Shown: positions 11,552 through 60,571 of the stretch, one piece after another | Position numbering within the stretch: the stretch's first letter is position 1 | Layout of the letters: the number at the start of each line of letters is the position of its first letter | Assembly (NCBI GenBank): GCA_000091205.1 | Contig: AP006495.2 | Length of the DNA stretch: 64,000 nt | Strand: one strand, 5' to 3' | Source: Cyanidioschyzon merolae | Taxonomy: Eukaryota | Made by a program: the position numbers and the translations under genes | The notes under the pieces: generated by a model | What the model saw: the letters and a program-made list of their open reading frames with translations, nothing else | What the model was told of the DNA's origin: nothing | The model's database searches: none

Positions 11552-11962
11552 GGCACCAGGCGTGCGCGATGTCCCATTTGTTAGTTATATACTATGAAGT
11601 GCAGATATTGAATTGTTATACGTCAATCATACTAAACTATCCATAAAAGACTCGAATTACGAAGCCGGTTGGCTGATCCTCAGTTCGTCGAGAACAGGAC
11701 GTGTGCGTCACGTCCGCAACGACTCTATACAAAACACTGTTAGCTTTGGTTTAGCGGATACGATCTGTTGTCGTCCAGTGATCGGGATGTGGGCAAGTAC
11801 CAGTGTATGACCTATATCCAAGTTCAATGAAAACCGATCGGGTCCAATTATCGATTTCGGGCGTGCAGCCGAAAGTTTTGGACTCTTCCCACGATCATCA
11901 ACACTACCATTTGTACGCTTTCTCGGCAGAAGATTCCGTTTTCTGTCGCTTTTGTTCGGATT

Positions 11963-22278: not shown

Positions 22279-25200
22279 CTGGCCCAGTGCTTTCCCTTCT
22301 GGTCAGTACGAGTCGTTTTTCGAACGGGACGCAGCACAGTACTGCACAACGCCAAGCATGCCACGCGTGTCGATTCGCTTCGGTGCGCGCACCATCGCAC
22401 ACGCAGCTGTCGCCGGAGCTGTCCGTCGCGTGGCGCGCTACAATGAGCGCAGTGTGGCGGTAACGACTGCGTCGCAGGGAGCACCCTCCTCAAGGGGCCA
22501 CGGCACTGCTGCGTTCGCTGACTCTGCCCATGATTGCCAGCGGGATGACTCGTTTCGGGGTCAGCAGAGGCTGCAGGTATCCGGAGTTGACTGGTGGTCG
22601 CTTTTCTGGTCTTTGGGGAGCGATTGCGTATCCCGAGGGGATTTTGTTTGGAGATGTCGATCTGACGTTGGAAAAAGTAAAGTTTTCATTTTAGACTCGG
22701 TATCACGACTATCACTGGACTAATGAAGCGCCATTTGGAAGAAAAGCATCATCTTGGGAATCGTACGACGTGATAGCGGCTCCTGGGCGCGTTGCGATGT
22801 GTTTTCTGGTCACTGGTGGCGCTGGCGCTTTCGATTCGTTTTGGGAAGGTTTTCTGAAACTGGACAAAAAGGACAGAATACTTGCTAGAACGAATACGTG
22901 TCTACGCGCGACTGGAAGACTGATCCGGAGCTTTTCGAACCTTGTTGTGTCTACACGGGTGCACGAGTCGCTTTCCTGGTTGCCGGCAATATTTCGTACC
23001 CAGGTCAGTCTGGGTCGATCCACCAGCGATGCACTTGTGCGATTGCGAGCGCTGTTGCCGGCGATAGGGGATCCGACTCGCGGCACAGGGCGCTCGGTCG
23101 GATATCCTAGATTCCTGAAAAAAAATCGTCAAAGTAAGAAAGGATGCATCCGGCAGGCGTTGCGCGCCACGTGGCATACATGCGGATCGACGAGTTCCGG
23201 ATACTACACGAGACGTACAGCGCCAAGTACGGCGTTCTGAATGGCAAACACGACATCGGGCAGGTGTAGTGATGGTGATCCTGTTGTGGTTGTTGTTGTC
23301 GGCGAAAATGGAGGTGTTACGAATGGTACATGTAATGATAGCGGAACCCTGAAACCGTTACCAGCGGGGTAGCGTCCTTTGCGTCTCGCGGGCCGATAAC
23401 GACATCGAGCTGGTGTGGTGCTGATGATTGCCCATGTTGGTGATGATGTTCATCATGGTTAGGCCCGTAAGCTTCTACCAGCGGTTGGACGTCGTGTGTA
23501 ATTGTCACAGGCAGCGTTCACCATTCCTTGTGGAAAGCGAGCAAGCTCTTTTTAGACTCACCGACGCTGTACCAGGATACGAAACAGCGTGCGGTGCAGG
23601 TGCAGCATAAATCGCGGAAGACGCATCCCGCACGTGACTGGACGCATGCGTGACGGCGGCTGAAAAGGTACAGGAGCTCGGGTTGGAGGAACGCCTCCCT
23701 CGCACACTCATAGAACATCGTGCAACTGGCCGTGTTCATTATAAGAATTGCGTGCACTGCAGTGCAAATGCGAGCGACGTTGTTTGCAGTGTCAAGTGCA
23801 GATGCCGACGCTGCCGTCTTTTAGGGCACAAGCTCGATGAGTCGTACGAGGTGTCAGGAGCTGTGCCATTACTGCCTTCAACAAGGTTGACCCTGGGATG
23901 CGCCCAATTGGAGGACGCTGCTGTCGACCTGGATTCCACACGCGTGTCGGAAGAGAATGGAACGCGTGCACTTTGCTCATTCAGATGTAGCAACCAGAAT
24001 CTGGCTGGCGTCCGACCGTCATCGAAACCAGCCATCATGCGTCCTTCCCGCAGCTTCTTCTTTTTCCTTTCGTTGATCACCGGCATTAAATATACCGGTC
24101 ACGCTTGTCCTTCCATCACCGCTGTCGACAGTTTACGAATTTGATAGCAACATCAAAGTTCTGGTTTAGCCGCTTACGGCTGTTTTCTATGCGTTTGATC
24201 GGCAGGCGGCACTCGCAATCGACACTTCGCATGCCAGTGTCATCTGCTTTGCACAAGGCCAAGGAATACCCTTTTTTAGCCGAGACACTTGTTTGTGACC
24301 AGATGTTACCACGTATCCACCAGATTCCTCCTATGAGATCAGAACCGTGGATTCATGGCCGGCTGCATGCCCTGGACGGGTGCAGAGGACTCCCCTCGAT
24401 GACCTTTTCTGTCCCCACATTCATCGCCATACCCGAAGATCACCGGCTCCTTCAGAGCGGTGCCCTCGACGAGTATTCTGTCTGCTGCGTACGCAAGCGT
24501 ATGCGGTTCCTTTCGACAGAGGGTCTGTGGAACGCGATCTTTTGCATGATGAAGCAGGTACCAGGAGCGGAATCGAGGCTGGATGACAAGTCGAGAAATT
24601 TTGGATCCGTCAACGCTCGCTTCGGGCACAACGGTGAAGCGCGCCTCACCAGAAAATTGATCCCTGCAATGGCTCGAGTCCGAGTCTGGGACCTGTTTCT
24701 GTGAAAGCAGAAGAGACGGTAGCCTATGCGAGCATATCCTGAGAGTGCTCGCTCACTGCCGCTGTTGAACGTCGGATCTTCGATTCTCACAGAGAAAGGA
24801 TTATTTGACTTGCGAAAGGATTCTGTTGTATGAGATGGAGCGTGCAGTGAACTTTGGACATGAGCCTGTGATCAAGTGATCAAGGAACGACGTCGTTTTA
24901 TTGTCCTCGTTCATCCAATCCTGCGAATGGCTGCGCGTGTACGAGTTGCCTCGAAACAACAGTATCGAAAACACAAAGCGTGTGTGATTTGTGCACGCCA
25001 CACGTTGGAAAAACCGCTTGGGGCTCTGACGTTTCAGTAAGATCATGATATCGTTTATTTTCCAAACCCTGATTCCAATGCCGTAACGCATTCCAGATGC
25101 AACGCGTCGTAGAAACCACCCAGAAAAGGCAAGCGAACACCATAAACGACGTGTGAATCCGTACACCCATTTGCTGCACTAGGAATACCGAAGCTGTTCG

Positions 25201-25747
25201 TCTACAACGAGTTCGAGGAAAATTCGAAAAACGCGAACAGAGCGAGGAGTCTAGTGTTGTGTTTTATCTGTCAGGCGTAGAGCATTAGTGTCTCCAGCGA
25301 GCCGCAGCGATCCAGAGCGCAGACTAGGCTATAGCGGGTCGCCTCAAAGGTTTTTGATGACAACGAGGACAATGCTTTGTGTGCCCGAGCGCCCAACATG
25401 ACTCGCCATTCCGAACCGGGATCCCATTCTACCCCAGCCAAAAACATCGTGTCGTCGGGCGCGGTCCCGTAGTGTCGCATTGGCGAGAGCGGGTGACTCG
25501 ACTTACGAGTCCGCCAGTTTGCCATTGTGCAGCAAGTGCATACTGAGGTTCAGCGACGCAACTTTTCCGGTGACGCTTGCCTCCACTGATGTCATTGCCG
25601 CAGTGACCGCTGCCTTCAGGGTTCTCGACGCAGTCGCGATGTCGACGGTCCGCTGTGCACCCAGTGCACCCTGACTCTCACCGTCCTGTCTGCGAGTTCG
25701 GGCTCCAATACCCATCGACGGGTTTGTAGCAGCAGCAGCAGCATAGG

Positions 25748-35755: not shown

Positions 35756-36504
35756 AATAGCCAGGAAAAACTGTACATGGTGAATTGGTGTGGTGCTCGG
35801 GTCTTGCAGTATTGCTGAACCGTTCTGTATCAGCGTGTGAGCAGAGGCGGGAATCCGATTCTCCCTCTTGAACAGTGATGTTTCTCCATTGCATATAGAT
35901 TCCGTTTCCAGCACCAGGGCCTCACTGGGTGCCAGAGGATTCCCTCAGAACTTCGCTCGACACCAAGCCGGTGGACGCGATGGCAACAAGCGCCCGTCCC
36001 GGATGTTCAGCGAGGCGATCATTCGTAGGTGCAGAGTGTCCTTGAGCGCATTCTTGCCGGGGGAATCATGCTACAGCATGCCTCCGATCTTCGATAGCTC
36101 CGCAATCTGAAATTTGATCAGCTTGCTGTTCGCCATCTCGTGAATCTGGCTCTGTCTCATGCTCTTCTTCTGTATTCGTTTCACTGTGCACCGGTACTGG
36201 CGATGCACGTACATCGTCCTGAACGCATCTATGGGAATCGTGCAGCATCGATTCGTGCACTTGCTTGGTGCTGTCGCTGAGGGCACAGGATTAGACTCTT
36301 GGGGTGGTACACAGCCCCCGTAGACATAGGCTACCACAACGCGACGAGAGTAATCGGTCATTTCCTTGCTGGGAGCCCCCAGAGGGCTTTGGTGAATGCA
36401 CGCATCTTGCCTCTGTAGAACCGGAGCCCGTCGGGGGCGTCAGTGCAGTCGCATGTGCTGCTCATACAGGTCCTTCGCATGAGCCATGTGGACGCCTTCG
36501 TACT
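35756..36504. repeat. Dispersed repeat, copy A (about 749 bp); direct repeat of 50031..50779 at roughly 98.5% identity
   Basis: Aligning the two copies base by base starts at 'aatagccaggaaaaactgtacatggtgaatt' and ends at 'gccatgtggacgccttcgtact'. There are about 11 mismatches. The flanking sequences are unrelated and I see no target-site duplication. Confidence 0.9.
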
Positions 36505-38309
36505 TTCTCTACGTGAAGCATACAAAGCTCCTGCCTCTGATCGAGACGGTGCTCAGAGGGCCATGATGGATCCTGGCACCCCCATTCGTGTCCTTGACAT
36601 GTCCCGTTGCCTGCATTATGCTCGACTGCCGATAATAAGGAGCTCTGAAAAAGTTGAGCAGCTTCATCTACTTTTCGTTCAGGTCCTCGGCTGCGTTCTC
36701 TTGATCTAGAGCCCAGTGACCTCCATGATATTCTTAAACATGGGATGCACGCACAGAAGAAAGGTTTTCTCTTTTTCTTTTCTGAACGCTTGAAACGGAG
36801 TCCCGTTGCCTGACGAAGGCCTGGATTCTACCACGTGCATATAGACTACAACGCCGTTGATCTCTCTCGTGTTCAGGAAGATTTTCCGTTCCATCCCGTT
36901 GAGCGAGCAACCCTGAATGAGCTCTGCCAATGCCGCATGCAAACTTGTCTGAATCTTTCATTTTTGCTCGCATAGACCAGCTCTCTCGTCGCCTTGTCCT
37001 TTACATGGCCGGATTGTATGCATCTGGTGACCAGATCCTCTATTTGTTTGTTTTCCTTGGAACCCAGGCACTTTGGGAGAACAGTGGTTATGAATCTGAC
37101 CTCATCTATGAGTGGATCTACTCATCCTCGAGCACCTTTTTGTCTACACCAACGCGAGCACGCCCGCAGACCGAGACGCACCTTTCCGCCTCCTGGACTG
37201 CGCGAGCTGACGGGCATCAGAGCAGCTCAGGCTTCGTGAATGCCGAACAGGATTCGTCGAAGACCGGTGTCGCGGACTCGAACAACTCTTCTATTGATCC
37301 GGGGATGTTAGAATGGCGTTCCACATCAGAGGAAGCGATGTCCTCTTGATTGAACCAAGGGGAGCGTGCTTGCACGAACTGCAGCTCAATTAGAATCTAA
37401 GCTGTGTACTCTTTGATCGCTTTTGAGCGGTCGAAAGTAACGTTGTGTTAGAGCAGGGCAGAGCGATATAGAGAGGCATAGGTATGAAACGTGCTCTGAG
37501 AAAGGATGAGGTATGGATCGGTTCCATCCGATTGGCGATTTGTAGGCGATACACGACTGCATTGTCGCTGGGGCTGAAGCTGTCGTCATGCTCGCTTGTC
37601 GCTTCTTAACGATAAGCGGGTTTTCCTTCCCGGAGTACCCAGGTACAGGTCTAGCATTCCTCTCGCGAAAGAAGTCTCATCGCGTGAGAGGAGCATTCGT
37701 CGCTCCTGTAATACGCATTGATGATCCAATACGAAATTGATCACGTGCTGCGCAGGGCACGACAAACTCCCACAGAAGCGCACTTTCATCTCCGTCCATC
37801 TGTTCGTCTTCATCACCAGTCGAATCAAATGTGCGGAAAACTTCACATACCATGGCTTCTCTAATTGTATTGCTTAGAGAATGTATGGAATACAATGGGT
37901 TGACGAGTAGACATTCGCGCGGATAGATTTCATCAATTTCTGTTTCGGGTGCATAACGTTCAGACCGAGGACTACGACAAATGCGGTTCATCCACTTGCT
38001 AACCGTCAACTAACTGACTTGTGCAAAGTAGGCCTATTTTTCCGGCTAGCAATGACAGCACAAGTCTTTCGATGACCTTGCCCCAATGCATCGTATGCAT
38101 TTCTTGTGCTGACTACCTCTGAGAAAACCGAACAGAAACAAAAACGGTGTGCTGTTGCAGGTATCCCTGAATGCACTGCGCTGTGGCTCAGGAGAGGCGG
38201 CGCATGAACGCCAACGCGTAGCAGCGATACGATCCCTTCGAAACCGGAGAGCGTCAAAACGCTTTCGTACTCATTTTTTTCGAGGCACTCTCGTCGGCTT
38301 TCTCCCAGC

Positions 38310-42635: not shown

Positions 42636-45600
42636 GGTAGCTCTCCAGCGCAAACTATGTGCCGTCCAACGAGCCAGGCGGGTACGCGTTTGTACTGTGT
42701 TGACGCACCTGCAAAACATCAAGCCTACGCCGCGCCTGAGTGCCTCCTGCAGCACTGGAGCGCCCTCTCTACAACGTGGCGTTTGACCACAGCGACGCCG
42801 CCCAGAGTCAGCGGAACGCACGTACGCCTCCTTCGTTGCTCGCTACGTGAAGAACCTGTGGCACCTCGAAGGGTACTGGAAACCGTCCTTCGACGAGTAC
42901 CTGGTTAGCAAGTTCTTGGCCTGCACATAAATCCCGTGTTTCCCACGGGTTGCTCTAGCGACTCGCAACGTGAAACTGTGACACTGATGCTGCAAATGCG
43001 TGTGCGGATCACGCACGCTGTCCCAAGTGCACGCATGCGCGTGCTGGACACGTGTGCATGATCGCCGCGTTGCACCTGCTTTTCTTCTCGATCTATCTAC
43101 CCATTTCGGTATAAAGTGCAAGGGCTCCACTTTGATGATGCAGAGGTGCACGTTTCAAGTTTAGGGATGTTCCTGTTGTGACTAACGCAGGCCTTTGTTG
43201 GCTTCTTCTTTGACAGTTTTCTTTTCAGTTTTTGCATCTCGGGCTTTGAATACACCGATCCCTCCTGTCTCCTTGTTACGGTTTCAGAAGTCGAAGGATG
43301 TTGATGGGAGCCTAAAAATGCTGTCCTCACAACTGCCGGCTATTGTTCAAGAATTCCGTGCACATGCAAACAATGCAACAGACGCTTCTCTTGCTTATAT
43401 CATCTTCTTCGTATGCGGCATCGGTGCGCACTTCGTAACGGTAACACTTGACTGTGGTCAGGTTCTCTCATGTATCCACCACATTCCGCCTTCGAGCTCA
43501 GCCCTGTGCCCCTTCAGCGCTTGATTCATCGCTCAGTATACGCCCTTAACTGATGCAGTAGGCTTGACTTGATGCCGTTCTCCGTTTCCGTATACGTCGC
43601 CGTACGCCGCGATCACGGGCTTCCTCTGAGCGATGCGACCGACGAGGACGCTGTGGGCTGAACACGCTAGCGCAAGTCGTCCCAGTCCATACAGGATTCG
43701 AGGAGTGCAATGTTTTCCGTGATGAAATGAGAATGGAAGGGAAAATCGAGGCTATTGCAAAGGTCGAGAAATCTCGATCCACGAACGCTCCGATCGTGGA
43801 AAGCGGTGGCGCACGCTCCGCTAGCGGCGATCGCTCTAATGACTGACGTCTGAACCCGAGACCCTTTTCTGCGCAAGCAGCAGAGACAGGAGCCTCTACC
43901 AGCATATCTTGTGAGAGGCATGGTGCTGCTGGTGTGGAATGCAGGGTCATCGATTGGGACAATGAGAGGAGAGTTTTTTTCTTTCGAGCAGGATCGATCA
44001 CTGGACGTGACAAGTTCAGGGAGCGTTCGGCACTAGCCTATGCGCAAGTCGTCAAGCGACGACGGAGAGTACTTTTCATCGTCTAGCCAGCCGGCGAATT
44101 CCTGCGTCCACTATTTTCCTTTAAACGGAATGTAGAAACCTTGAGGAACGCATGATTTGCGCATGATACTTGTGAGGAAAGGAACGGACTGGAGGCTAGT
44201 GCGAACGAATTGTATCATAATTTTATTTATTATACGAACTCTTGCTTGAGTGCATCGCGAATGATCCTGAATCCGGTGATATAAAGAGTTCTTTCAGCAT
44301 AGCGTTGAGAAAGCCACATCGAATACCTGGCTGCGAATCCTAAAACCATGTATGCATGAACGATGCTCGTTGCTACACTTCGACAGCTGAGGCCAGGCAT
44401 CTAAGAAAGGATCGGAAGAAATTCCAAGGCAGGAACACGGCAAGCAGTACGACGTCCCGTGTTAATCGGACAGGCGTATAGGCTCGATGCATTTCAGCGG
44501 ATATTCACCAGCGATAGGACTACTGCAGATAACCAGCGAAGAAACGCCACTGTTCCACAAGATTCATGTATGGTGTAGGATCAACGCTCCTTATGAAATG
44601 TCCTCCCGCGGTGCAACTGCTGATGATCACCAGAGAAGAACGCTCTCCGTAACTCCACGGAAACTTCCAAGCATCAGCAAGAGCCGTTCAGTGTTTGCGG
44701 CAGGTTCAAGACTTTGCTCGAGCAACTTGTCGGGTGCCGAGCCCAGCCTGCTGTCCGTACAGACATAGGACGGGATTGTGGTCCCTCTGCTATGATCGCC
44801 TTAACAACTGCCTCTCATCGTTCCGAATAAAAGGCACCTAGATCCGCAGATAGAAACTTGTATTTACGCTTGTTTCGCCCAATCTAGACGTTGCAACCGA
44901 CTGCACCAAGCTCTTCGTCTTGAAATCCCTCGAGCCGTCCATTTCATTATCGCATGATTCATTAGTGCGCAACTCGTCGCTTAGAGCATGCCGTGTGTAC
45001 CAGACGATCCATTCGCCGAAAATCGAGCGCCAAACCAAGCATTTACCGCTGACAACGACTCGCTCCATACACGCCGACGAGCCGTGCTGCACAGCTGTTG
45101 GTAGTGACCCGTCCAGCAAGATAACCACTCGGACGAAGGTTATCAGGACGACGATCTATATGGTCATTCGTCCCCGACCTGAAAAACACCGAGACATGTG
45201 CACCACCATGCGCTATCGAAGCACCGAAATAAAACAAGTTTCCTCTCCAGTGAGGACGCCTACCGCGAGCTCATAATCTCGACCACCGCCATCAGAACTT
45301 GCATGACCACGCCCTTCATCCTGAGGCATACCGCCCAGGGAATCCTTATGGTCTCGCTGACGCGAACACGCCAGCGTCGGTGCCACAGGACTGCACGCGA
45401 AACGGAACGAAGCGGACACGTGGTTGCTAGTCCCACGGCGCCAACGTACCCTTCAAATCACTTGGCTATCACTTCCTGCCGGATGTGTCCATGTCCTCCG
45501 TCTCTACCGCAACAGGTGCGCCAGTGTTGTGCTTGTCATGCATATTCATATCCAAGTACGCGCGCATGTCCTCGATCGAGTCGCGACCTGGAGCACCAGC

Positions 45601-47695
45601 GGAGCCAACGGTCGAAGAGCGCGGCGTCCGCGTTGGCGTCGGCGCACACTCTTCCCGTTTCGGACACCCCTCCCTGAGCCAGTCAAAAAAGGCTCCAGGT
45701 CCGACTTCATAGTGCCCATCACGCATCTTAAACCGTGTCACGAGACACATACTGAACACAGATACAAGCGCCAACGCCAAACTTGAACGTGTTGGTTGCT
45801 CGCTGATCGCAGGCGCCGCCACGTCAGTTGTGGCTGCGGCGGCGGCGCCGCCCCGACGGGCTACCCCCTCCAACGGCGATCTCATCGATAGGACGTACGA
45901 AACGACCAGAATATCCGAGATGAAGTATAGGTAATGTAACTTGGGAGTAGGGTGTTTGATGGATACCTCACCGCGCACTGAAAACACACACACAAAAAAA
46001 GTAAGAAAAGAAAAATGCGCATAATCGGAGAACGCTGGCCTATGGAAACGGTTTGTCTATGGAAAAAAGAAAGAAAAACGGCGATCTCAGTGCGCAGCGC
46101 CCGGATGCCGTTGCACGGCGTTGCGGCCCCGAGCGCAGACAAGTAGGTGTTGGTGCGAGAGTCTGGGGCAGACTCGACATTCAGCGTACATGTATGTGGA
46201 TTCTTGGATTGGACAGAGATCGCTGACGGAGATACTGAGATGATCTTGTTCGGTATGTAAATCTCGTGGCATTTGTTGGTGAAGTGTAGGCAATTTTCAG
46301 TTTACCAGGAACTGTGCTTCGGGAGTCATCAGGGTCGATCGCATAACTCGATATCCGTAGACTGTGTTCGAAGTATTGTGGAGGCTGTCTGATTTTGACG
46401 GGAGCAGCATGGACCGCAAGTCTGCGCTCTATGCGTAAAATTCTATTGGCAGGAGCTCGGGAAGGAGCAAGAAACATCGCTTGACGCTCTCGAGTCGCGC
46501 ATACAAATCCGGAATCAGTGGAGCCTCGCCCCGTCACTAATGCTTGGCGGTCTCTTGCTTGGTTACCGACCGTCGTCGCACAAGCAATGAAATCGAGTCA
46601 GCGTCTCCAGTTCTATCGTAGAGAAGATGCAGCATAGCTGCGCTCTTTGCTAAGGGGGCAATCCATCGTAGACCGGGGCGCTCAACATCTGCAGGTGCTT
46701 GATCGATCACTCCCGGTGGAGGAGAATGTCGAGACTTTCGAAATATCGAGCGGGCACGGCACAGGCAATGTCTCGTGCTCTCCTGGGACCCGCTTGAATT
46801 TGTTTCCGTGCTTCAGCTTGATGTAATGAGCGACACGAGAGTCGAGGTTCATCTAGATTTGATTCGTGTCCATCGTGCTGGAAAGGCCCCGAGCATCTGC
46901 GTCAAGCCGAAGAAACCCGCCTTCATTCACCTTTACGGATCTTGTCCTTTGGTATGTCCTATCGTTCTTCCGGGTCAGAGATGATCGAATTCATTAGTGC
47001 TCGGCATGAGACTCGAGCCGATGGTGTTCTCCATGTCGTAACGGTTCCTCGCGGTACAGGCGATCTCGCAAGCGTAGAAAAGATCGTATCAAGGAACGAG
47101 CGCGCGCTTATGGCCTCTTCGCTCATCCATGCTTTCGCCTTTTTGTACCAAAGTCCTTTCGGTGTCTATACGAAATGAAACAAACGATAAAGTGAACTGG
47201 GTCAAGAGTCGCGAGAGAGATTCCTTAGAACGTGGACCTTCCCGAGGGCGCTGGCTTCCCCTCGCGTTCAGTCGCCCTTGAAGACTCCATAAGCGAGACG
47301 ACGGACTTTATCTATTCGCGATGACGAACTTGGCGGAGAGAGGTCAGTTTAAATTTGGTGACGATGAATTGCGCTTGGGCCATTTCTTCGGGCTCGTCGT
47401 CTCCTCTCTCTCTCACCCGAAGCATCGTGCAGCACATTTCCTCTGAATTCCAGAGCATGTGCTACCCTTATACCGATGGAATCATTTTTCTCTCCTGGTG
47501 AAGCGCACCCTCAACCGCTAATTCGCTCAAGAGATCCGAAAATTCGATACACCTTTTCGTTGCTACAGGGCGAATGCACCAGTTTGAAACATGCACGACT
47601 GGGTTCCTGCATGCCCAAGTGCCATCTCGCCACCACGCTCAGGCGCTAAGGTCGCGCTGGCGTGTGTATAGCGCCCCTCGTATCGGTAAGCAAGT

Positions 47696-50030: not shown

Positions 50031-50779
50031 AATAGCCAGGAAAAACTGTACATGGTGAATTGATGTGGTGCTCGGGTCTTGCAGTATTGCTGAACCGTTC
50101 TGTATCAGCGAGTGAGCAGAGGCGGGAATCCGATTCTCCCTCTTGAACAGTGATGTTTCTCCATTGCATATAGGTTCCGTTTCCAGCACCAGGGCCTCAC
50201 TGGGTGCCAGAGGATTCCCTCAGAACTTCGCTCGACACCAAGCCGGTGGACGCGATGGCAACAAGCGTCCGTCCCGGATGTTCAGCGAGGCGATCATTCG
50301 TAGGTGCAGAGTGTCCTTGCGCGCATTCTTGCCGGGGGAATCATGCTACAGCATGCCTCCGATCTTCGATAGCTCCGCAATCTGAAATTTGATCAGCTTG
50401 CTGTTCGCCATCTCGTGAATCTGGCTCTGTCTCATGCTCTTCTTCTGTATTCGTTTCACTGTGCACCGGTCCTGGCGATGCACGTACATCGTCCTGAACG
50501 CATCTATGGGAATCGTGCAGCATCGATTCCTGCACTTGCTTGGTGCTGTCGCTGAGGGCACAGGATTAGACTCTTGGGGTGGTACACAGCCGCCGTAGAC
50601 ATAGGCTACCACAACGCGACGAGAGTAATCGGTCATTTCCTTGCTGGGAGCCCCCAGAGGGCTTTGGTGAAAGCACGCATCTTGCCTCTGTAGAACCGGA
50701 GCCCGTCAGGGGCGTCAGTGCAGTCGCATGTGCTGCTCATACAGGTCCTTCGCATGAGCCATGTGGACGCCTTCGTACT
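50031..50779. repeat. Dispersed repeat, copy B (direct repeat of 35756..36504)
   Basis: See copy A. The offset is 14275 bp. This copy lies in the 5' flank of the peroxidase gene. Confidence 0.9.
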
Positions 50780-53364
50780 ACATGGAGCTTACATCATGTC
50801 CCGCCAGTTCCATTCTTCTGTGTCAGAATTGCTAGGGCACGACGGGTACGATCCAAAGAGGGTGCGTCCCAGGAAGCGCTCGGCATTGACCCGCGGGAGG
50901 TATTTGAGGTTGTTTTCAATTTATCATTGACGCTCGCGGCTTACATTTGGTGATCGCTGACGTTGCTCGGCGTTGTGCCAAACTATACAGGGAAGCCTGT
51001 ATAAAGATTTCGGATCAAAAGATCAGTCCGTCAGACGTCTTCTATCCCGATCATCTGTTGTCCTGCGTTGCGAAGGTGAGATCGAAAGATATCCAGAGAA
51101 ATATGGATAGATGGCAGCGCTGCGTCCGGATTTCATGCGATCAGTTGCTTGACGATGTGGGCCAAAGCGAGAGAAGCAGGCGAGCGTTCCTCAAATGAGA
51201 AGCCACGCGATCTTTCCTAGCGTCCATCAGCTCGCGTAAGAAAGGTGAACCCGCAGATGCGTTTTCGTAGGGAGGCCATGCCAACGGTTTCAGGTTGATC
51301 TCTCAGCCCCGATAGGTTTTCTTTCTGGTTCCTCGTCGTCCTGCGTTCTGTACAAAGTTGCTGCTTTTGCCCCATGAGTCCTGCACCTTCTACTTCTCCG
51401 CGTTCGCCCATACTTGGTGGAGAATCATGAACGTATACCCATACTCCATAACCGTTCGTTTTTCTTGGGATTCTGATGCGCCGTAAGGGCGGAATCATTG
51501 AAGCGCCACTGCTCTATTGATGTATTTACGGTCCCGTAACTACTTTTTCGTGATCCCCGTTCCGACCGTGTCCATAAACCGCAGCGCGCTTGTCCTCTGC
51601 CTCGCGCATACGACGAGCAACACTGCAGATCCGGGCTGGTCAGGGCAGGGAACAACTCGACCAAGAAGGATGCCATGGATGTGTTCGAGTCGTCCGTTGA
51701 TCCGTAAGCGTCGAAACGGTCTCTGACAACAGAGAAGACGCCTGCGACTCGATTCAACCCAGGAGCATACACTGGCACCGAGAGCACTTCAACTCGAACC
51801 GCAACTGCATGCACCGTTCCCGCTTGTGTGAGTGATAGAAAGCGGCGTTATGTAAGAGCAGGCGAGAGGCGTATGGAAGGAAAAGTCCTGAAGTGCTTCG
51901 ACGAAGCGTGAGGTGATGAACGATCTTACCCGATTGGCGATTTGGCGGCAACTATACGATAGCTACGACGCTATGACTGTTTTTTTAGTTACGGTCGCTC
52001 GTTTCACCTCTGCAAACAGCGGTTTGTTCCTTGTTGAGAACACGTGCACAAGTCTGCGATTTCCCTGGGACGAGGTCCCTTCGAGTGAGACGGAGAACCG
52101 TCTCAGATATAGGAAGCATTCGCGTTTCTGTACGAAATCGATGGCGTGCTTTTCAGCACGGGACCGTCCCGTACGGAAGCACGCTCTTTCATCATGTCCA
52201 TGTGTTTCTCTCGATAAGCATTGGTATCAGCGGTGTGGAAACTCCACACGCTTTGGCTTCTTTGGAAGAAGTTCGTTGAGAATGTTTGGAGTGAATTGGG
52301 TTGACGAGGAGACAGGCGCGAAAATAGAGTTTCATAGGTTCTGTGTTTTGGGTACACGACGCGTAGGATAGAGGACTACCAGGAAGGTGGTTCCTCCACC
52401 TGCTCATCGTTCAATGAAAGACTCGCACATGTAAGACCTTTTTTCGCAATCTAGCAGTCGCAGCATCAATTAGCTCCAAGACCTTCCTCCGATCTACACG
52501 ATGCATTGTTTTTGTGAAACATGCTCGGGTGATACAGAAACATACACAAAATGGACGTCATTGTATATGCGTCCCCGAAGGCACTGCTCGATTCGGAGCA
52601 TACCAGAAGCGTGTCGTTCTACCAGAATCGACTCGGCCATATGGAGGTTTCCTCTGAACACTCCATATATTACAGCATTGGCCTTGGATCAATACAGTCG
52701 ATGCTGCGGCTAGCGCGCATACACGCTGCAACCTTCGCTCGCGAACAGCGTTGCGACCGATCCACCGTCGGTATCATCGCATGCACGCAAACCGATTGGC
52801 TTTGAATGGAATACACTACGAGAGACTGAACTGACTCGCCTGGATGTGCAAACGCTTCTGGTTAGCGGCGCTCCGACTTGCCCAGGAATGTGTGGTCTTA
52901 TCGAAACTTTGTCGCCTGAGAGCACTGCAGGACCCGGAGAAAGCGCTTCAATCGATTCAATTTTTTATTCATTGACAGAACGTTTCCTTAGGCCAGCGTT
53001 CTCCGATTATGCGCATTTTTCTTCTCTTACTTTTTTTGTGTTTTTTCAGTGCGAGGTGTGGTATCCATCAGCTCCCTACCTCCATGTTACATTACCTATA
53101 CTTCTTCTCGGATATTCTGGTCGTTTCATACGTCCTATCGAGTGTGTGCCTAGTGCCTGCCGAAAGCGACCGCACCGGCGCCTAAAGCGCCGGTGCGTCA
53201 ATCGATGCAATACTGGCATTCGCGCCCTGGCCCCGATCGATGACCCGAAGATCCGCCGCCCGCGACATCCGGACGCACCCGCTATCGGTGCGCGCATGCA
53301 TCATCGGCGCATATCGAGACGTGAACCCTATATATATCAATTCTAGTGCCTAACTGAACGAAAC

Positions 53365-53957: not shown

Positions 53958-56090
53958 GTGTCTGCAACTGGCGAGTCTTGTGCGACTTACTCGCAACGCT
54001 CTCCAAAGATGCCCTCGCTGGTTTCTATTCCTGAACCGCAACGCACTGGGAGTGAAGCTTCGGATAAGGCGTGGTCCGCAACGAGCTCCCTGGTGGACTA
54101 CGTTTGTCGTCTGGATGAACGCAGCATCGACATGCTATTCACGGCCTGCGATTTGACGGTGTTCGGAATCCTCCGGGCTTTGCCTCCGCTTGCGAAAATT
54201 ATCTTGTTCCGTTTTCTCGCACTGAGCGACTATGTGCAAGAAATACCTGCACATATTGTGACTGCCTGGATCGCGGACCCTCGCACCGAGGAGCGCAACG
54301 ACCCCGTCTGGGGCCATACATCGAGAACTAGTGCCAAATCAACGTCTGCCTTCCCCGACTCGGAGCGCGAACGAAACCTAATCGTATCCCGTATCCTGCA
54401 CGTCCTTACCAGGCTGCGTTTTCTGCGCCGAACGGTGCAGGAGCAACCATCGAACGGCACATCCCAGGAGCTCGTGACCTATGCCTTACCACCAGCAATC
54501 CGTGAACATCTCCTGAGGTACCTCTGGGCAACCACAAATTCGCAAGAGAATCTCGAGGGGGCATGCACGCCCCGGAGAAGCAGTGCCAGCTCTGTTGATG
54601 CCTCAACACGCGCATCATGGATTCGCCTTCTCGAGCCGTTTCAGCGCATAGCGAACGCCAGCGATGGTCGAATACCAACAAGGCTCACAGCACCGCAACT
54701 CCGAGAGTACACTCGTCATGCATGGGAGCACGTTTTACACTTTGTGATTGGCATCCCCGTGGCGGAGCCTGAAATCAGGCAACCCACGGGTCCTGAACAC
54801 ACTCCAGAACACGTCATGGAGCCGCCGTCTGACGAAGTCATCGAAGCACTGCTGAGTTTGGGAGTCAGCGAGCAAGTCGGCTCCGATGGGATGCGCATCA
54901 CTGAACGAGGTTTCTCGTACCTTCTCCTCGATATTCATGCACAGTTGTGGGCCCTGCTCGAAGCATACATGGAAAACTGGGATGAAGCGCGTGGTGATCG
55001 TCTCGAACTCTTCGATCTGTTGTTCCGTCTGGGTTTCTCTGTGCCCGGACACATCTACGATGGCGGCGATCCGAGCCTGTCCGCAGCACAGTGCCGAATG
55101 CTCGGCTTTCTTGCGGAAATCGGCCTCGTATACCTCATGGAAACAGAGCAAAGCAGACAAGATGGCGACAACGATGAACAGCTCGTGATTCGCAGGCGCC
55201 GCCCGGGCCGGCCCCTGTACCTGCACGCCACGTCAACGAAAGACAGTCGTCGCAGCCCGGATGGACAGGCACGCTTCACATCGTCGCCGCTGCAACCACT
55301 TGGCAGCCTGATGGATGCCAACGACCGGGTGGCAACCAACATCAGTGCGGCTGTGCCCGGGAAAAACGATTTGACCTTCGATCGTCGGGTGGCTGCGCTC
55401 TTGAAGAAGCACTCGTCCAGGGTGCTGTTTTCGCCAACTCCGCTGGGTACACAGCTCATGATGGGGCCCGCCCTCGATCCTGTGGTCGCTCGTGAGCAGC
55501 CTGATGCAGTGCCCCGGCATGCTGAGATCCTCATCGAATCCGAACCTGTACTTGCAACTCCATCTGCAGGCAGGAGACCAAGCTTGGGGCGGTCCATCCT
55601 GAGCGGATCGCCATTCCAAATCATTGTGGAGACGAACTTCCGCCTATATGCCTATGCTGCTTCCTCGTTCCAGGTGGCATTGCTTTCGCTCTTCACGCGG
55701 ATCCTCTATCGCATGCCGGGCGTTGCCATTGGGGTCATCACGCGAGACTCAGTGCGACGCGCTCTCAAGTGCGGCATCACCGCCAAACAGCTGCTGCACT
55801 TTCTAGGTATCCATTCCATGGAGGGCAAAAGCGTCCCTTTTAACGTGCATGACCAAATCCTGCTCTGGGAATTGGAGCGCAAACGGATCCAGGCGTATCC
55901 TGGGGTCCTCCTGGAGGGCTTCGAGCCCACCTCCGACGGTCGCGCCTTTTTCGACCAACTCCAGGAGTACACGGTAGAACTTGGAGCCCAACAGTGGTGT
56001 GATCGAGTGCGCCAGTTGTTGGTTGCAGACGCGTCGTCCTTTGAAAGGCTACGAGAGTGGATTCGGAGGCAGGCGCAGACGCTTTCTTGA
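53958..56090 (+). CDS. TFB2: General transcription factor IIH subunit p52 (TFB2/GTF2H4)
   Basis: 'ILRALPPLAKIILFRFLAL' matches yeast Tfb2 'ILPPLAKFFIMAMVF'. 'WEHVLHFVIGIPVAEPE', 'ITERGFSYLLLDIHAQLWALL' and 'IIVETNFRLYAYAASSFQVALLSLF...GVITRDSVRRALKCGITAKQLLHFL' all have Tfb2 counterparts. Confidence 0.85.
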   Translation: MSATGESCATYSQRSPKMPSLVSIPEPQRTGSEASDKAWSATSSLVDYVCRLDERSIDMLFTACDLTVFGILRALPPLAKIILFRFLALSDYVQEIPAHIVTAWIADPRTEERNDPVWGHTSRTSAKSTSAFPDSERERNLIVSRILHVLTRLRFLRRTVQEQPSNGTSQELVTYALPPAIREHLLRYLWATTNSQENLEGACTPRRSSASSVDASTRASWIRLLEPFQRIANASDGRIPTRLTAPQLREYTRHAWEHVLHFVIGIPVAEPEIRQPTGPEHTPEHVMEPPSDEVIEALLSLGVSEQVGSDGMRITERGFSYLLLDIHAQLWALLEAYMENWDEARGDRLELFDLLFRLGFSVPGHIYDGGDPSLSAAQCRMLGFLAEIGLVYLMETEQSRQDGDNDEQLVIRRRRPGRPLYLHATSTKDSRRSPDGQARFTSSPLQPLGSLMDANDRVATNISAAVPGKNDLTFDRRVAALLKKHSSRVLFSPTPLGTQLMMGPALDPVVAREQPDAVPRHAEILIESEPVLATPSAGRRPSLGRSILSGSPFQIIVETNFRLYAYAASSFQVALLSLFTRILYRMPGVAIGVITRDSVRRALKCGITAKQLLHFLGIHSMEGKSVPFNVHDQILLWELERKRIQAYPGVLLEGFEPTSDGRAFFDQLQEYTVELGAQQWCDRVRQLLVADASSFERLREWIRRQAQTLS

Positions 56091-56321
56091 AACAGCGTCT
56101 TTCGGCTGCCGATTATTTGATCCGCGCCTCTGTTCCTGCCTGGTGCAAGCAGGTCGACGTAACCGACTGGATGCACAGATGCGGAACCCAGCGAGCGACG
56201 CGGGTGTCTTGCAGCGCCCGGCCGTTGCTCAGACAAGATGATCGGCAGCGGGGCGTACTCGAGCGCCAGTGTACAGCTATTGCAAGCGCAGGTTCTGCGG
56301 GAAAGTATGGGTCATGGCGGG

Positions 56322-56523
56322 CGGTACCTGGACGCAGAGCGCTGACTGAAGGTCATTTTCTGTGTTGCCGATATCCTCCCGCGCACTCGGGATGCTCCTG
56401 TCAGTGTCGAGGTTCACTGGTGGAACCTGGATGTCGAACGCTGAATGAAGGGCGTTCTCCCAGTTGCCGATATCCTATCGCGCGCACTCGGGACTCTCTT
56501 GTCAGTGTTAATGTTCTGTCGAG
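56322..56523. repeat. Imperfect tandem repeat with a period of about 99 bp (about 2.2 copies)
   Basis: 'gctgactgaaggtcattttctgtgttgccgatatcctcccgcgcactcgggatgctcctgtcagtgtcgaggttc...' repeats as 'gctgaatgaagggcgttctcccagttgccgatatcctatcgcgcgcactcgggactctcttgtcagtgttaatgttc...'. A partial copy ends just upstream. Confidence 0.8.
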
Positions 56524-57064
56524 AAAAACGTCGCGAGTGCAGTGCTTGAACTCAGCAATCCTTGGTGTGGCCTTGTCTTGGATGCACACGGTTAGCGCAG
56601 CCTGCGTCGCGCCTCCTATCTCCAGTACTTAGCGTACGGGCGCAGTCTGCATGATCGTTGAACAGTTGTGCTCGGCGTAATGTCGTCGCCGCAGAAATAC
56701 ACGCGGTACAGCGGGTCTGATTCGTAGAACATAGGCCGCAGAAGAATCGCCTGCAGGAGGTCAAGCATCCAGCGTTTCGTCTCATGAAATCACCGATCGG
56801 TTGACTCGTGACCCCTTCGGGCTTCCTGTGATCCGGTGCTGGTACTATGACGGAACGTGTGCGGAAGCGGTGACGCTGAGGCCTCGACAACCCCAAGCGT
56901 CTGTGTACCCGGGCGAGTCGGGCAAGTTCCATCAAGCAAGTATCATGATAATAGAGTTGCACGGGCACGCTCCAGTGCCGCCGCTTCCGTTGCGCGAAAC
57001 ATCAGCCTATATCCATGTAAGCATATCATCGAACGGCTCCATCCGGCTAACTCGTATGTACTCT

Positions 57065-57745
57065 CTAAACATAAGGTATCGTTTTACGGTTGTCAACACC
57101 AGGCTGTGCGGGCTTGTTCTTCGACTGCTTCGTTTCCCCGTCCGGTATCTGCGGCTTGAAGCGCGCTGGCCGCCAATATCCCCGGAACTCCGTGGCCAGC
57201 AGTTGACAGAGGTTGATGGCAGCGTCCAAGTCCCGATGATATTGCTTTACGCTGTTTCCAACGTATGTCATGCACACGGGATAGTCACGCGCTACGCTGG
57301 GCTTGACATTTTCACCATTTTGTTTGTGTAAAGCATTGGTGCGCCCGTCGCAGTGGTTGCACTTGACACTGGCCAGGTGTTCTCGCGTGTCGACCACAGC
57401 GCTCCCGGCGAGCGGCGCCTTGTCGTGCTTCAATACAAGCTTCATTGCCTGGAAGATACCCATAAAGGTACAGAGGGCTCCTGCGGATGACTTCTTCCGT
57501 TTCTGTGCCAAGAGTCCTGACGTGTGACCATGAGGTTTTTCTCCGCGTTCCGATCGGCGAGTTCCGTGCCCGCTGCGTATGTAACTGGACGATGTTCCGT
57601 TCTACAAAGGATTCGTGGAGCGCGGTTTCGTCCATGATGAAATTAGCACGCTATGGAGAATCCAGACTGGGATACAAGTCGAGATATCTCGATCCGTCTA
57701 CGCTCGCCCTGGGGCTAGCGGCAACTCATGATCGAGTCCAATGCC
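57065..57745 (-). pseudogene. Decayed TnpB/Fanzor-like (OMEGA RuvC nuclease) gene relic: zinc finger and RuvC-III are intact but no continuous ORF exists (a stop and a frameshift lie upstream)
   Basis: The frame of ORF 57065..57511 has no ATG; the ORF track started it at a TTG. It encodes '...KLVLKHDKAPLAGSAVVDTREHLASVKCNHCDG...HRDLDAAINLCQ', which aligns with TnpB '...LEYKAKWYG..VVxVDRxFPSSKxCSxCG...DRDLNAAINI'. A candidate RuvC-II ('SFVERNIV') lies in a second frame and a RuvC-I-like 'WGIGLDH' about 175 aa upstream in a third frame. Confidence 0.45.
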
Positions 57746-58799
57746 CCACTTTCCATGCAAACAGAAGCGAAAATGGAGCCCCAGAACGCATATCCCACGA
57801 GAGGTATCCCGCTTCTGTCGGATATCGTTTCTTTGCTGTTTACAAAGAGAGTAGATTTTGTGTTTCGAACGGAATCGAACAATTTTGCGTGAGCGATTCC
57901 AAGTACTTTTGGTATGAGCTCGTGAACAAGTCGTCAAAGGACGATGACGACGATCTTTTCTTGTCGTGGATCCAGCAGCGCGAAGCGTTGCGTGCACGAG
58001 TTGCGTCGGGACCGGAAGATCGAAACCTTGAAGAATGCGAGATTTGAGCATGCTCCACGGAAGCAATGGAGAAGCGCGGAGGCTGGTTCGTATGAAATGG
58101 ATAACGGTTTCAGATATCTTACGAACCCGTGTCGGATGACTTTGCAAATCATCTTGATTCCGGTGACGAAACGAATTCCATAGCCAAAGCATCGAAGGAG
58201 ATTCTCCGAGACCATGCCCAGAAATCCCAAAACTCCGTATGAATCCAAACGCCCCTCTTTCTGCACCTGGAATCTCGAGGCTATGCGTCTAAACAAGCTC
58301 GCAAACAATCGCAAGGCAGGGGCAGATCTAACACTTCATAATTCCATTTTTATCTGGCACGGATCATGTGCGCATGAAACCTGGAATCACGCCATGGTCG
58401 ACAGACGGCACGTTCGTCGTCTCCTAGAGAGCGGCTCGTTCACCATAGTGCTTGTCGAAGACCGCTGTTATTTGGATGAGAAGCGCGTCCAGTAACGCTT
58501 TGCGCAGATGCTATGACGCTGGGCACCTGCACAGCATCAAGAAACTATTCTGTGCATATCGTCCCAGTCGCTGTGAATGCTCGATGCGCACTATCCGTCG
58601 TGAGATATGCGTGAAAAAAGGGACCTCGAGGGAAGCGCAACGATCCGTTATCGGGTACGTTGCTGTGTACTTTGGGTCCGCCAAGGCATGCACCAGCATC
58701 CGCAGTGCCCCGTACAACTGCGATGCCTCTCATGGGAGAGTGATGCGTCTGCCGCGGCTCGCCTGCAAACAGGTTGCCGCAAAGTCATTTTGACCCTCC

Positions 58800-60125
58800 T
58801 CAGTCTCGGTAGATGATGGCGTCGCGGCCGGGTCCGACGCCAATGAACCGCACTGGAACGCCAACCAGCTCTTCGATGCGCTTGACATAGGCCTGGGCGT
58901 TTCGTGGCAAGTCGGCAAAGTCGCGTATCTCAGAAAGCGATTGCTCGTGCCAGCCGGGCATCTGCTCGTATTCGACTTCGCATTCAGCGAGCTCTCGCAG
59001 CGAGGCTGGCATGCCCTGCAATTTTTTTCCGCGATACCAGTACTGGACACCGATCTGGATCTCATGAAAACAACTGAGCACATCGAGTTTCGTTAAACAG
59101 AGCGCCGTGAAACCATTCAAGCGGCAAGTATAACGCAGGAGGAAGGTGTCAAGCCAACCGCAGCGGCGCGGTCGCTGCGTCGTCGTCCCGTACTCTTGAC
59201 CAAGCTGTTGAAGCTGAATTCCGCGGGCGTCCAGTAACTCCGTTGGAAATGGCCCAGCACCGACCCGCGTCGTGTACGCTTTCACAACGCCAATGACCTG
59301 CCGAATGTATGCGAGAGGAATCCCGAGGCCGGTCAGGCAGCCGCCGATCGTGCAGTTGCTCGAGGTCACATAGGGATACGTACCAAAATCGATATCCAAC
59401 ATTGCAGCGTTTGCCCCCTCAACGAGTATCGAGTGTTGGCCATTTGCGAGCATGTCGTAGAGCAAAGTAAACGAGTCTCCGATCATCGGCTCAAGACGTC
59501 GCGCGTACTCGTAGTAACGAGCCACTTCAGCGCGAACATCGTAGTGTTTAAGCGCCTGCTCCGCTGCCGAGCCGAAACGCTTTCGCAAGTCTTCCACTGC
59601 CGATTGTATGTGAGCCTCAAATTCGATACCTCGAAATTCCCGAAGGTCTGCGATTCGCAGGTTTCTGCGATATGCTTTGTCCGCATAACAGGGACCTATT
59701 CCGCGTCGGGTCGTGCCTATACTGCCACCGGCAGTTCCCGCTCGCTCCGTCTCTAGCAGACCATCTGCAATCTGATGGTAATCAAAGAGGATGTGCGCTC
59801 GATCGCTAACGCAAACTCTAGCGGAGACGTTCGGTACGCCCTGCTTCTCTAATTGGTCGATTTCCGCGAACAGGGTCGGCAAGTGCACCACCACTCCGTT
59901 TCCAATGACCACGAGGACTTTGGGGTTTAATATCCCGCTTGGCAACAAATGCAAAGCGTACTTGGTACCATTCACGACGATGGTATGTCCGGCGTTGCTG
60001 CCTCCCTGACAACGGGCGACAACGTCAGCGCGCTGGGCCAGAAGGTCCACCAGTTTGCCCTTGCCCTCGTCGCCCCACTGTGCCCCGAGCACGACGGTGG
60101 CGCCACCTGGTAAATCCGAAGCCAT
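58800..60125 (-). CDS. ADSS: Adenylosuccinate synthetase
   Basis: '[16 protein letters not shown]' is the P-loop, '[13 protein letters not shown]' follows, and the C-terminal 'GVGPGRD' is present. The start was set at the ATG at 60125 ('[24 protein letters not shown]'). Confidence 0.9.
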
Positions 60126-60571
60126 TCGACCACGCGCTTGGGCATGCACAGAGCCAGGAGACCTGGACCACACGGGTGCTCCCTGGCGTAAAGTCGAAAC
60201 ACAGATATTGTGTCACTGGTACGAGGCCGTAGCTTATATGTCGCTGGGTATGCTTCGGAAGCCGGCGGCTGCGTGTCGCGTTGGACGTCGTTGTTCATCA
60301 TGGACAATATTGGTCAATACGGCCGTTGAAGGAGCGGCTTTCCCATACGCGAAATACGCCTCTATACCCATTGTATGCAGCATTCAAATCATGAATAAAA
60401 CTAGCCAATACGCTCACTGGATGAGCGGCCTGTCAATGGACGATACGCGCCAATACGCCTACGGAATGCACATGGTCAATTAGGAACAGAACTAGATCAT
60501 ACGCCCATGCAAAGAGCGATGCAGAACTGGCGCCACGACGATGCGACGGATCCGCCGCCCAAGCGTCCAAC

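Follow-up and report, generated by a model that had tools for sequence, protein, structure and literature searches.

A locus of Cyanidioschyzon merolae best read as a dead deletion derivative of a Tc1-like transposon carrying a Fanzor1 gene

Introduction

Fanzor1 genes, which are eukaryotic TnpB genes, have been described inside Tc/mariner elements with TA duplications (PUl-1, PGv-1 and SPu-1), and the Spizellomyces element among them has terminal inverted repeats (TIRs) and TA flanks (Bao & Jurka, 2013; PMC3627910). The same work described CMe-1A of Cyanidioschyzon merolae, an old Fanzor1 family of ∼150 copies that are ∼80% identical to their consensus; it is ∼3.2 kb in length, has neither TIRs nor a transposase and was left unclassified. 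Rhodophytes and an association of Fanzor1c with Mariner/Tc1 elements were both listed by Jiang et al. (2023; PMC10530073), who also reported that the canonical RuvC-II glutamate of Fanzors is replaced by glycine or proline and that an alternative glutamate ∼45 residues downstream takes over its role. In this study, a locus at 57011-58365 on the minus strand of a 64 000-nucleotide stretch of C. merolae DNA (contig AP006495.2; the whole stretch is hereafter termed the window) was analyzed, in which an earlier reading of the sequence alone had noticed a decayed Fanzor/TnpB-like nuclease gene. The locus is very probably a dead full-length copy of a ∼1.38 kb nonautonomous transposon, a deletion derivative with one Tc1-like and one Fanzor1 half, and the family to which it belongs is here named famX.

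The sequence-only reading had regarded such elements as only recently described, whereas both the Fanzor1 family of C. merolae and Tc1/mariner-borne Fanzor1 genes date from 2013 (Bao & Jurka, 2013). The kind of element is thus already known, and famX is a separate Tc1-borne Fanzor1 lineage in a deleted form. No description of famX, or of any such derivative with a 5′ transposase part and a 3′ Fanzor part, was found in the literature searched (Repbase was not covered). The family joins CMe-1A as a second Fanzor1 lineage of cyanidiophyte-like genomes, one that is Tc1-borne.

Structure of the element

Searches with tblastn using the fragments found four copies in the window, all of which lie on the minus strand (the chance of all four sharing an orientation is 1 in 8). 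When 21 distinct copies, comprising the four from the window and 17 others, were each compared in translation with all the rest, the repeat was sharply delimited, from about −1150 to +180 relative to the RuvC-III codon. In the DNA consensus of these copies, which was built with MAFFT and has a length of 1381 bp, the columns are about 73% identical and two reading frames are restored. The upstream frame, MYSLDIRSAAIRAYGFIRSFRILGRLFGVAPSTLCRW...FVAIDETAF...FIMDNIAFHKS, matches the DDE_3 transposase family (PF13358, E = 1.2e-10, 41.8 bits, above the cut-off of 28.6 bits), and the downstream frame, …RALACAADRVLAEGIAQKKPVIVGYGTGRGNGGGHRGEPSVPVKGMYRAMKQAF…VVDIWEHLTTAKCHRCEGRTEAVYKEDENGKRSVDRNFRLCMKCVDNSRKQRNRDLNAAINILRLL…, matches PF07282 with 32.3 bits, above the cut-off of 26.3 bits. 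The ends of the consensus form inverted repeats of about 25 bp, CATCCGTGTCAGATTAAAATGGAAC and GTTCCATTTTATTCTGACATGGGTG, and TA is often adjacent to them; in the alignment, as read by eye, it stands next to the 3′ end in about nine of the 21 relics. Nearly all metagenomic copies that are not cut by a contig end are full length (model positions ∼2-1380), including copies outside the seed alignment.

Homology of both halves, a shared junction, TIRs and TA flanks at the level of the family, a multi-copy state and decay were all observed. The copy under study (Table 1) is 75.7% identical to the family consensus with 24 indels, 21 of which shift the frame, and its earlier description as decayed therefore holds. 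The start codon of its transposase remnant is mutated to ACG (58288-58286), and the region of the second catalytic aspartate, FIMDNIAFHKS in the consensus, reads FIMDETALHES (57641-57609). After frame repair, the transposase part is colinear with an intact 317-residue transposase (on contig L059; see below) over amino acids 13-227 (BLASTP E = 8e-17); the same reading taken alone gave no Pfam match. The Fanzor1-derived part makes up the 3′ 0.6 kb of the element, contains at least one frameshift, near 57465-57480, and corresponds to about 215 codons in the intact proteins, which hold an extra insert. The 148-residue open reading frame (ORF) that had first drawn attention is as it was described, but it is only a portion of the repeat unit, which is considerably larger.

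The annotation of the window is corrected accordingly: half of the gap that had been called gene-less, together with three further gaps, belongs to one old transposon family, and several ORFs called here by metagenome gene callers are spurious readings of the famX repeat. Among them, a 186-residue ORF at 57487-58047 (+) runs antisense to the relic, wholly within its bounds, and is almost certainly not genuine, and a 229-residue ORF at 12397-13086 (−) arises from the transposase-derived segment of another famX copy.

Table 1. Coordinates in the window of the famX copy, its parts and the further copies of the family
Feature	Position	Strand	Basis or remark
famX copy, full length, decayed, 1355 bp	57011-58365	−	nhmmer with family DNA profile (match 57011-58364), model positions 2-1380 of 1381; copy is in the seed
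5′ TIR remnant, GATCCGTGCCAGATAAAAATGGAAT	58341-58365	−	21/25 bases match the consensus CATCCGTGTCAGATTAAAATGGAAC, by eye
Tc1-like DDE (DDE_3) transposase pseudogene, N-terminal ∼230 codons	57606-58288	−	Pfam match of consensus; BLASTP
GIGLD string, decayed transposase sequence (consensus HGKGSWTRTS, here HGKWGIGLD)	57731-57745	−	Copy-to-consensus alignment
Fanzor1-derived part, last ∼180 codons	57065-57605	−	hhalign of frame-repaired reading; PF07282 match of family consensus
VERNIV string, Fanzor-derived DNA read out of frame, at or immediately after the junction	57588-57605	−	Consensus alignment and frames
RuvC-II-equivalent strand remnant NLMVTRQ (consensus PVIVGYG), frame-shifted	57537-57517	−	Alignment to family consensus
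148-residue ORF, MAQKRKK...HRDLDAAINL...TIPYV	57065-57511	−	Open-reading-frame list
Alternative catalytic glutamate, kept, E44 in DTREHL (consensus IWEHLTT)	57382-57380	−	Alignment; role in Fanzors from Jiang et al. (2023; PMC10530073)
Zinc ribbon, first CxxC, CNHC, intact	57361-57350	−	Motif location
Zinc ribbon, second CxxC, CMTY, degenerate (consensus CMKC)	57274-57263	−	Motif location
RuvC-III motif HRDLDAAINL (consensus NRDLNAAINIL)	57238-57209	−	Motif location in ORF
3′ untranslated tail with ACGxx box and 3′ TIR	57011-57064	−	Right-end signature also in intact elements of several subfamilies
3′ TIR, GTTCGATGATATGCTTACATGGAT	57011-57035	−	18/25 bases match the consensus GTTCCATTTTATTCTGACATGGGTG, by eye
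TA abutting the 3′ end, putative target-site duplication	57009-57010		5′ side reads AT (58366-58367)
Further full-length famX copies, each 74-75% identical to consensus and with many frameshifts	43099-44476, 23940-25277, 11816-13161	−	nhmmer

Origin of the 3′ part

The peptide had been proposed to be a relic of the C-terminal part of a TnpB/Fanzor protein, and this proposal is borne out. Against 1.84 billion representatives, phmmer with the 148-residue ORF found 26 other proteins with E < 1e-3 (best 1.4e-10). All of them are short ORF fragments that share the block VxDxxEHLTTxKCHxCEGRT...RLCMKCVDNS...RDLNAAINILRLL, in which a zinc ribbon and the RDxNAAIN motif can be recognized, and the peptide is therefore real and a member of a repeated family. 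A metagenome scan using a consensus-led subset of the relic alignment yielded 52 loci, nearly all of which are stop-broken; an intact ORF on contig L040 (protein P0033) led to full-length relatives of ∼760 residues (P0036-P0049). These carry the RuvC-I motif GLDPGRVNLYT as well as PVIIGYGTGRGNGGGHKGEPSVPVKAMYRAL, VWEHYTTQKCHRC, RDFRVCEHCS and RNRDFNAAINIL.

Profile-profile alignment with hhalign connects the relics with known Fanzors in steps. The relic alignment matches the profile of the intact family with 100% probability (E = 2.9e-40), and the intact family in turn matches a published Fanzor1 set (CMe-1, VCa-1, CRe-1, CRe-4 and CVu-1; Bao & Jurka, 2013, supplement 3; PMC3627910) with 99.8% (E = 1.8e-27, 368 columns). 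The relic alignment also matches the published set directly (96.4%, E = 1.4e-9), and the frame-repaired Fanzor-derived reading of the window copy matches the intact-family profile (97.3%, E = 2.4e-11). Furthermore, in a Foldseek comparison with the PDB, an AlphaFold2 model of intact P0036 (mean pLDDT 68, pTM 0.55) returned Spizellomyces and Parasitella Fanzor structures (SpuFz/PpFz) as all of its top six matches (E 1.4e-11 to 6.7e-10), with Cas12f and TnpB structures far behind. Among PDB chains, sequence or profile searches retrieved no Fanzor or TnpB, whether started from the relic alignment, the L040 ORF or the intact-family alignment; the lineage is therefore remote from the characterized Fanzors, and its homology is shown by profile-profile and fold comparison. 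On these comparisons, the C-terminal peptide descends from a Fanzor1 gene.

A chance resemblance of a short peptide with cysteines and an RD pair to the TnpB C-terminus would agree with the empty PDB sequence searches and with the Pfam result for the single copy: the best match of the 148-residue ORF was PF07282 (the Cas12f1-like TNB family, formerly OrfB_Zn_ribbon, which covers the TNB zinc ribbon and RuvC-III) with E = 0.0085 and 16.7 bits, which is below the cut-off of 26.3 bits, and an NCBIfam scan of three ORF fragments gave no match. PF07282 was matched by five of the 27 proteins formed by the ORF and its phmmer relatives (best 8e-6). However, profile-profile E values of 1e-9 to 1e-40, a family consensus that passes the Pfam gathering score and a structure search that returns Fanzor structures leave coincidence with hardly any credibility. 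A search with a TnpB profile, as had been suggested, thus stays below the cut-off for the ORF alone and passes it for the family consensus.

RuvC motifs and upstream strings

The RuvC-III motif HRDLDAAINL is present in the encoded peptide as had been reported. The zinc finger that had been described alongside it is retained in part: the first cysteine pair is intact, but the second is degenerate, so that the window copy reads AS-VK-CNHC...CMTY, with three of the four cysteines and alanine replacing threonine or serine, whereas the family consensus TT-AK-CHRC...CMKC is complete.

The sequence-only reading had also placed a RuvC-I-like GIGLD and a RuvC-II-like VERNIV at the expected spacings upstream of the ORF, in different frames and separated by a stop, so that the locus would be a full-length Fanzor gene that had decayed in place. 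Both strings do exist upstream of the C-terminal ORF, and a 2.7 kb gap is large enough for a 2.3 kb gene. VERNIV is indeed in another frame and stop codons lie between VERNIV, GIGLD and the ORF, but GIGLD shares the frame of the ORF. Neither string is the proposed motif. GIGLD aligns with a transposase segment instead, and VERNIV is read out of the Fanzor frame at the deletion junction, where the proper frame gives RAPRILCRTEH (consensus ILYRMEQRA). In this clade the true RuvC-I reads GLDPGRVNLYT, and the RuvC-II position is occupied by PVIIGYG in the intact relatives, with glycine in place of the canonical glutamate. A compensating glutamate lies about 45 residues downstream, in VWEH in the intact relatives and in DTREHL in the window copy; the family consensus shows the same rearranged RuvC-II of Fanzor type, with 42-44 residues between PVIVGYG and IWEH.

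A profile of the intact proteins was run against six-frame translations of the window and gave no match upstream of about 57450 in this copy, and neither the N-terminal two thirds of Fanzor nor RuvC-I was found with it in the window or in any relic. The relics match the profile only at positions ∼530-740, with none upstream of ∼527, and the 0.75 kb upstream of the Fanzor part is colinear with a DDE transposase. This chimeric structure is common to all copies. Decay of a full-length gene in place is consequently very unlikely: every copy of the family carries the same single internal deletion and only the last third of the nuclease gene, and the window copy therefore never held RuvC-I or the N-terminal two thirds.

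The motif pattern expected of a Fanzor nuclease was taken as D-X(125,275)-[TS][TS]-X-X-C4-X(5,50)-RD. Its first D, the RuvC-I aspartate, is missing from the window copy, as it is from all members of the deletion family. Without RuvC-I and without one zinc ligand the window copy cannot be a nuclease, despite its alternative glutamate and its RuvC-III aspartate; as far as sequence can tell, the missing RuvC-I would make RNA-guided DNA cleavage structurally impossible.

Intact relatives and the inferred parent

The identical gene for P0036 was found in 81 contig blocks of the metagenome collection. It lies 72 bp downstream of a gene for a 317-residue DDE_3 transposase on the same strand, in at least five different flanks. 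Homology among these insertions ends at TA followed by CAATCTTGTTATGTATTTTTGCAAC on the left and at ...GTTGCATTATATGTTAACATAGGTG followed by TA on the right, 40 bp past the Fanzor stop codon, and TA is present on both sides in all five intact insertions. In the transposase, 34 residues separate the second aspartate from the glutamate (DD34E, Tc1-like; counted by hand). The same layout of transposase and Fanzor is found with P0043, which is 47% identical to P0036. The consensus transposase of the relics is 41% identical to the intact transposase over amino acids 1-227 (E = 4e-59), and the similarity ends directly after MDNIAFHKS; matches to transposase in the relics stop by residue ∼250. DNA of the intact elements matches the relic model only from consensus nucleotide ∼787 to ∼1046, which places the junction at about 57600-57610 in the window.

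The parent, as modelled on these relatives, would have been a ∼3.5 kb Tc1-like cut-and-paste transposon with the order TA, TIR of ∼25 bp, DD34E transposase of 317 residues, 72 bp, Fanzor1 of 765 residues, 40 bp including the TIR, and TA. Its Fanzor, by analogy with the family, would have been an fRNA-guided nuclease serving the transposon. A single internal deletion of ∼1.9 kb very probably then took out Fanzor codons 1 to ∼530 (REC/WED and RuvC-I), the spacer and the transposase C-terminus, which includes the third catalytic residue, while both ends were kept. The derivative could still have been moved in trans by a transposase recognizing its TIRs, as would be expected from the family, and probably amplified in one burst to many copies, all of which would subsequently have undergone neutral decay, leaving about 75% identity to the consensus.

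Several points weigh against this account or limit it. The 21 copies from the window and elsewhere were used to build the family model, and their high scores are partly a result of this construction. The transposase/Fanzor junction is known to about ±15 bp. The same organism yielded no intact parent of precisely this family; the intact relatives share only 41-45% identity and lie on contigs of other organisms (GC 43-56%), so that the deletion scenario rests on architecture and not on a direct ancestor. In addition, a repeat search within the window copy alone did not detect its TIRs (21/25 and 18/25 matches), its 5′ flank is AT and not TA, and TIRs and TA flanks are clear only in the consensus and the intact relatives. 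A proposed check for terminal inverted repeats was thus positive for the 21-copy consensus and for the intact elements but negative for this copy by itself. More of the Fanzor gene is kept at locus L017 (minus strand), where profile positions 368-646 are represented, and this suggests relics of an undeleted parent in the same community.

The intact element encoding the 317-residue DD34E transposase and the 765-residue Fanzor1 was located on contigs L058-L063 (for example, L059:116-3438), which are gene-dense with 43% GC and carry Skp1, DEAD, lipase, DNA_pol_A and ankyrin genes. Since the element is identical in at least five flanks and on record in 81 blocks, continued mobility is probable. 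L058 carries a further, divergent pair of transposase and Fanzor (320 and 803 residues) in the opposite orientation. A scan of IMG/VR for the intact family, made with a giant-virus vehicle in mind, found no viral relative. Such elements are a potential source of compact RNA-guided nucleases, which may come from habitats that are hot or acidic.

Contigs L038-L040 hold an uninterrupted ORF (L040:4699-6582; P0033, 610 residues) with a complete Fanzor C-terminal module, including the alternative glutamate, the C4 ribbon and RuvC-III. The N-terminal ∼385 residues are of low complexity (poly-Q/G/A), lack the DPG of RuvC-I and contain a domain shared with the neighboring gene L040:2275-2823; P0033 is possibly a chimera or a domesticated derivative that belongs to another organism.

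Right end and guide RNA

The last third of a Fanzor/TnpB gene is the usual place of the guide-RNA scaffold. The sequence-only reading had proposed a look for a conserved structured RNA 3′ of the gene, at about 56650-57065, and this suggestion fails: homology within the family ends at 57011, so that 56650-57010 holds nothing conserved, and Rfam gave no match with E ≤ 1 over 56000-59000.

The right end of the element itself is conserved. Comparison of L059, L065, L066, L067, the second copy on L058 and the family consensus showed, a few bases past the Fanzor stop codon, a short (T)ACGCC box; across subfamilies with 40-50% protein identity and differing GC contents, the box reads TACGCC and is followed by GTTCCATT...CATGGTG and then TA. 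In sequence terms this end fits a transposase-binding TIR. An overlap of Fanzor fRNAs with the TIR has been reported (Jiang et al., 2023; PMC10530073), and for this reason the right end could also contribute to an RNA scaffold. For the 3′ 280 nucleotides of five subfamily right ends, the consensus structure from RNAalifold was weak (−19.9 kcal/mol), and its covariation term was unfavorable.

It is conceivable, although we think it unlikely, that famX elements are `guide-RNA-only' hitch-hikers, which kept the Fanzor third and the right end since these encode the fRNA/omega-RNA scaffold. If so, two proteins would have served them in trans: the Tc1 transposase, by way of their TIRs, and the Fanzor protein encoded by autonomous copies, by way of their RNA. 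The elements would then be a eukaryotic counterpart of bacterial nonautonomous IS200/605 derivatives bearing omega-RNA.

Locus and sequence constraint

The window is eukaryotic with few introns and a GC content of about 55%. The famX copy sits in the tail-to-tail spacer between the gene for TFIIH Tfb2/p52 (53958-56090, +) and that for adenylosuccinate synthetase (58800-60173, −), and the same locus is present on metagenomic contigs L001-L003, the DNA of which is 99.4-99.5% identical to this part of the window.

Retention of the locus by the host, either of the 148-residue fragment as a small functional protein or of the element for its RNA, was also considered. The ORF is open for 148 codons, is ∼99% identical in several metagenomic strains and is annotated as a gene by metagenome gene callers. 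However, these strains are only ∼0.6% diverged overall, and the conservation of the ORF therefore carries no information. The three variant residues among strains are all amino-acid changes (three of three substitutions are nonsynonymous), one of them within RuvC-III (DLDTAINL). One zinc ligand is gone, and the sister copies in the window are stop-broken in the same region. Polymorphism relative to the 99.4%-identical strains is about twice as dense in the element (7.4 per kb) as in the flanking coding sequences (3.0-3.8 per kb), with small numbers in both cases. Domestication is thus given very little probability. The window copy shows no sign of constraint and has no plausible function, and the ORF is a fragment of the transposon relic left open by chance.

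Other features of the window

A 191-residue ORF at 56057-56632 (+) is called as a gene by metagenome callers on syntenic contigs. At ∼51627-51788 (from L001:15676-15837) a weak tblastn match (E = 5e-4) to the C-terminal residues 241-298 of a Tc1-like transposase was observed; the segment corresponds to the part deleted in famX and could be what is left of a further Tc1-like copy. A pair of 185-bp inverted repeats, at 45885-46068 and 52962-53141, is 88.6% identical.

The published CMe-1 protein matched the window by tblastn at 8734-9421 (+), 20164-20589 (−), 35933-36685 (−) and 50208-50768 (−), with 28-48% amino-acid identity and E values of 1e-15 to 1e-28. No long ORF survives in the copy at 35.9-36.7 kb. 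Two of these relics are spanned by a direct duplication of 762 bp (35743-36504/50019-50779; 98.2% identity, 14.3 kb apart), which is far younger than the relics and therefore points to segmental duplication or gene conversion. With four relics of CMe-1 type and four famX copies, making eight in 64 kb, the genome was colonized by Fanzor elements not only as the sequence-only reading had proposed but repeatedly.

CMe-1 also has matches of 65-80% identity on metagenomic contigs that bear famX. On one of these (L050:7970-10285, minus strand; contig Ga0080006_1163603), beside a famX copy, a 772-codon open frame is 74% identical to CMe-1 residues 133-731 and keeps DPG (RuvC-I), DEF (alternative glutamate) and RD (RuvC-III), while its N-terminus is frame-shifted. 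The expectation of an intact paralogue elsewhere is thus nearly realized by this frame, but in the other Fanzor family and with the N-terminal frameshift.

Comparison with known systems

The described Tc1/mariner Fanzor1 elements PUl-1, PGv-1 and SPu-1 resemble the parent of famX in combining a mariner/Tc1 transposase and a Fanzor1 with short TIRs and TA flanks. They also share its Fanzor motif pattern, namely a [TS][TS]-x-x-C4 ribbon followed by RD, a glycine at RuvC-II and an alternative glutamate ∼45 residues on. In contrast to them, famX belongs to a different sequence family (∼25% identity to published Fanzor1 proteins), and the window copy is a deletion that fuses the 5′ part of the transposase to the 3′ third of Fanzor.

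CMe-1A resembles famX in being old, multi-copy and Fanzor1-bearing, with similar decay in a compact genome, and the presence of CMe-1-like relics at other sites of the window and on metagenomic contigs shared with famX could suggest that the locus is simply a member of this family. However, CMe-1 matches four other sites and not 57011-58365, CMe-1A is ∼3.2 kb in length without TIRs or a transposase, and CMe-1 is only ∼25% identical to the intact relatives of famX. Membership is extremely improbable and, in the absence of a tblastn match with CMe-1, was rejected at the family level; both lie within the Fanzor1 clade. Unlike CMe-1A, famX is 1.38 kb long, has TIRs and TA flanks and is of Tc1-like origin, and the two Fanzor lineages are distinct.

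The best structural matches of intact P0036, SpuFz1 (PDB 8GKH) and PpFz, were found with a Foldseek probability of 1.00, although with 13-16% sequence identity and TM-scores of 0.34-0.48 for a medium-confidence model. The SpuFz element likewise has TIRs and TA duplications (PMC3627910). Unlike SpuFz1 and PpFz, the window copy keeps only the part after RuvC-II.

In the manner of Ds-type derivatives of Ac and of deleted Tc1/mariner copies, famX kept its ends and lost its interior, with one junction common to all copies, and would be mobilized in trans; it differs from these derivatives in that what remains of its interior happens to come from an RNA-guided nuclease gene, of which it is the 3′ third. 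Bacterial TnpB (IS200/IS605 and IS607) and Cas12f are distant homologues, PF07282 being the only Pfam family matched by the Fanzor part. In contrast to both, the lineage of famX belongs to a eukaryotic clade in which RuvC-II is rearranged; it is associated with a DDE transposase rather than with TnpA, and its intact proteins are much larger.

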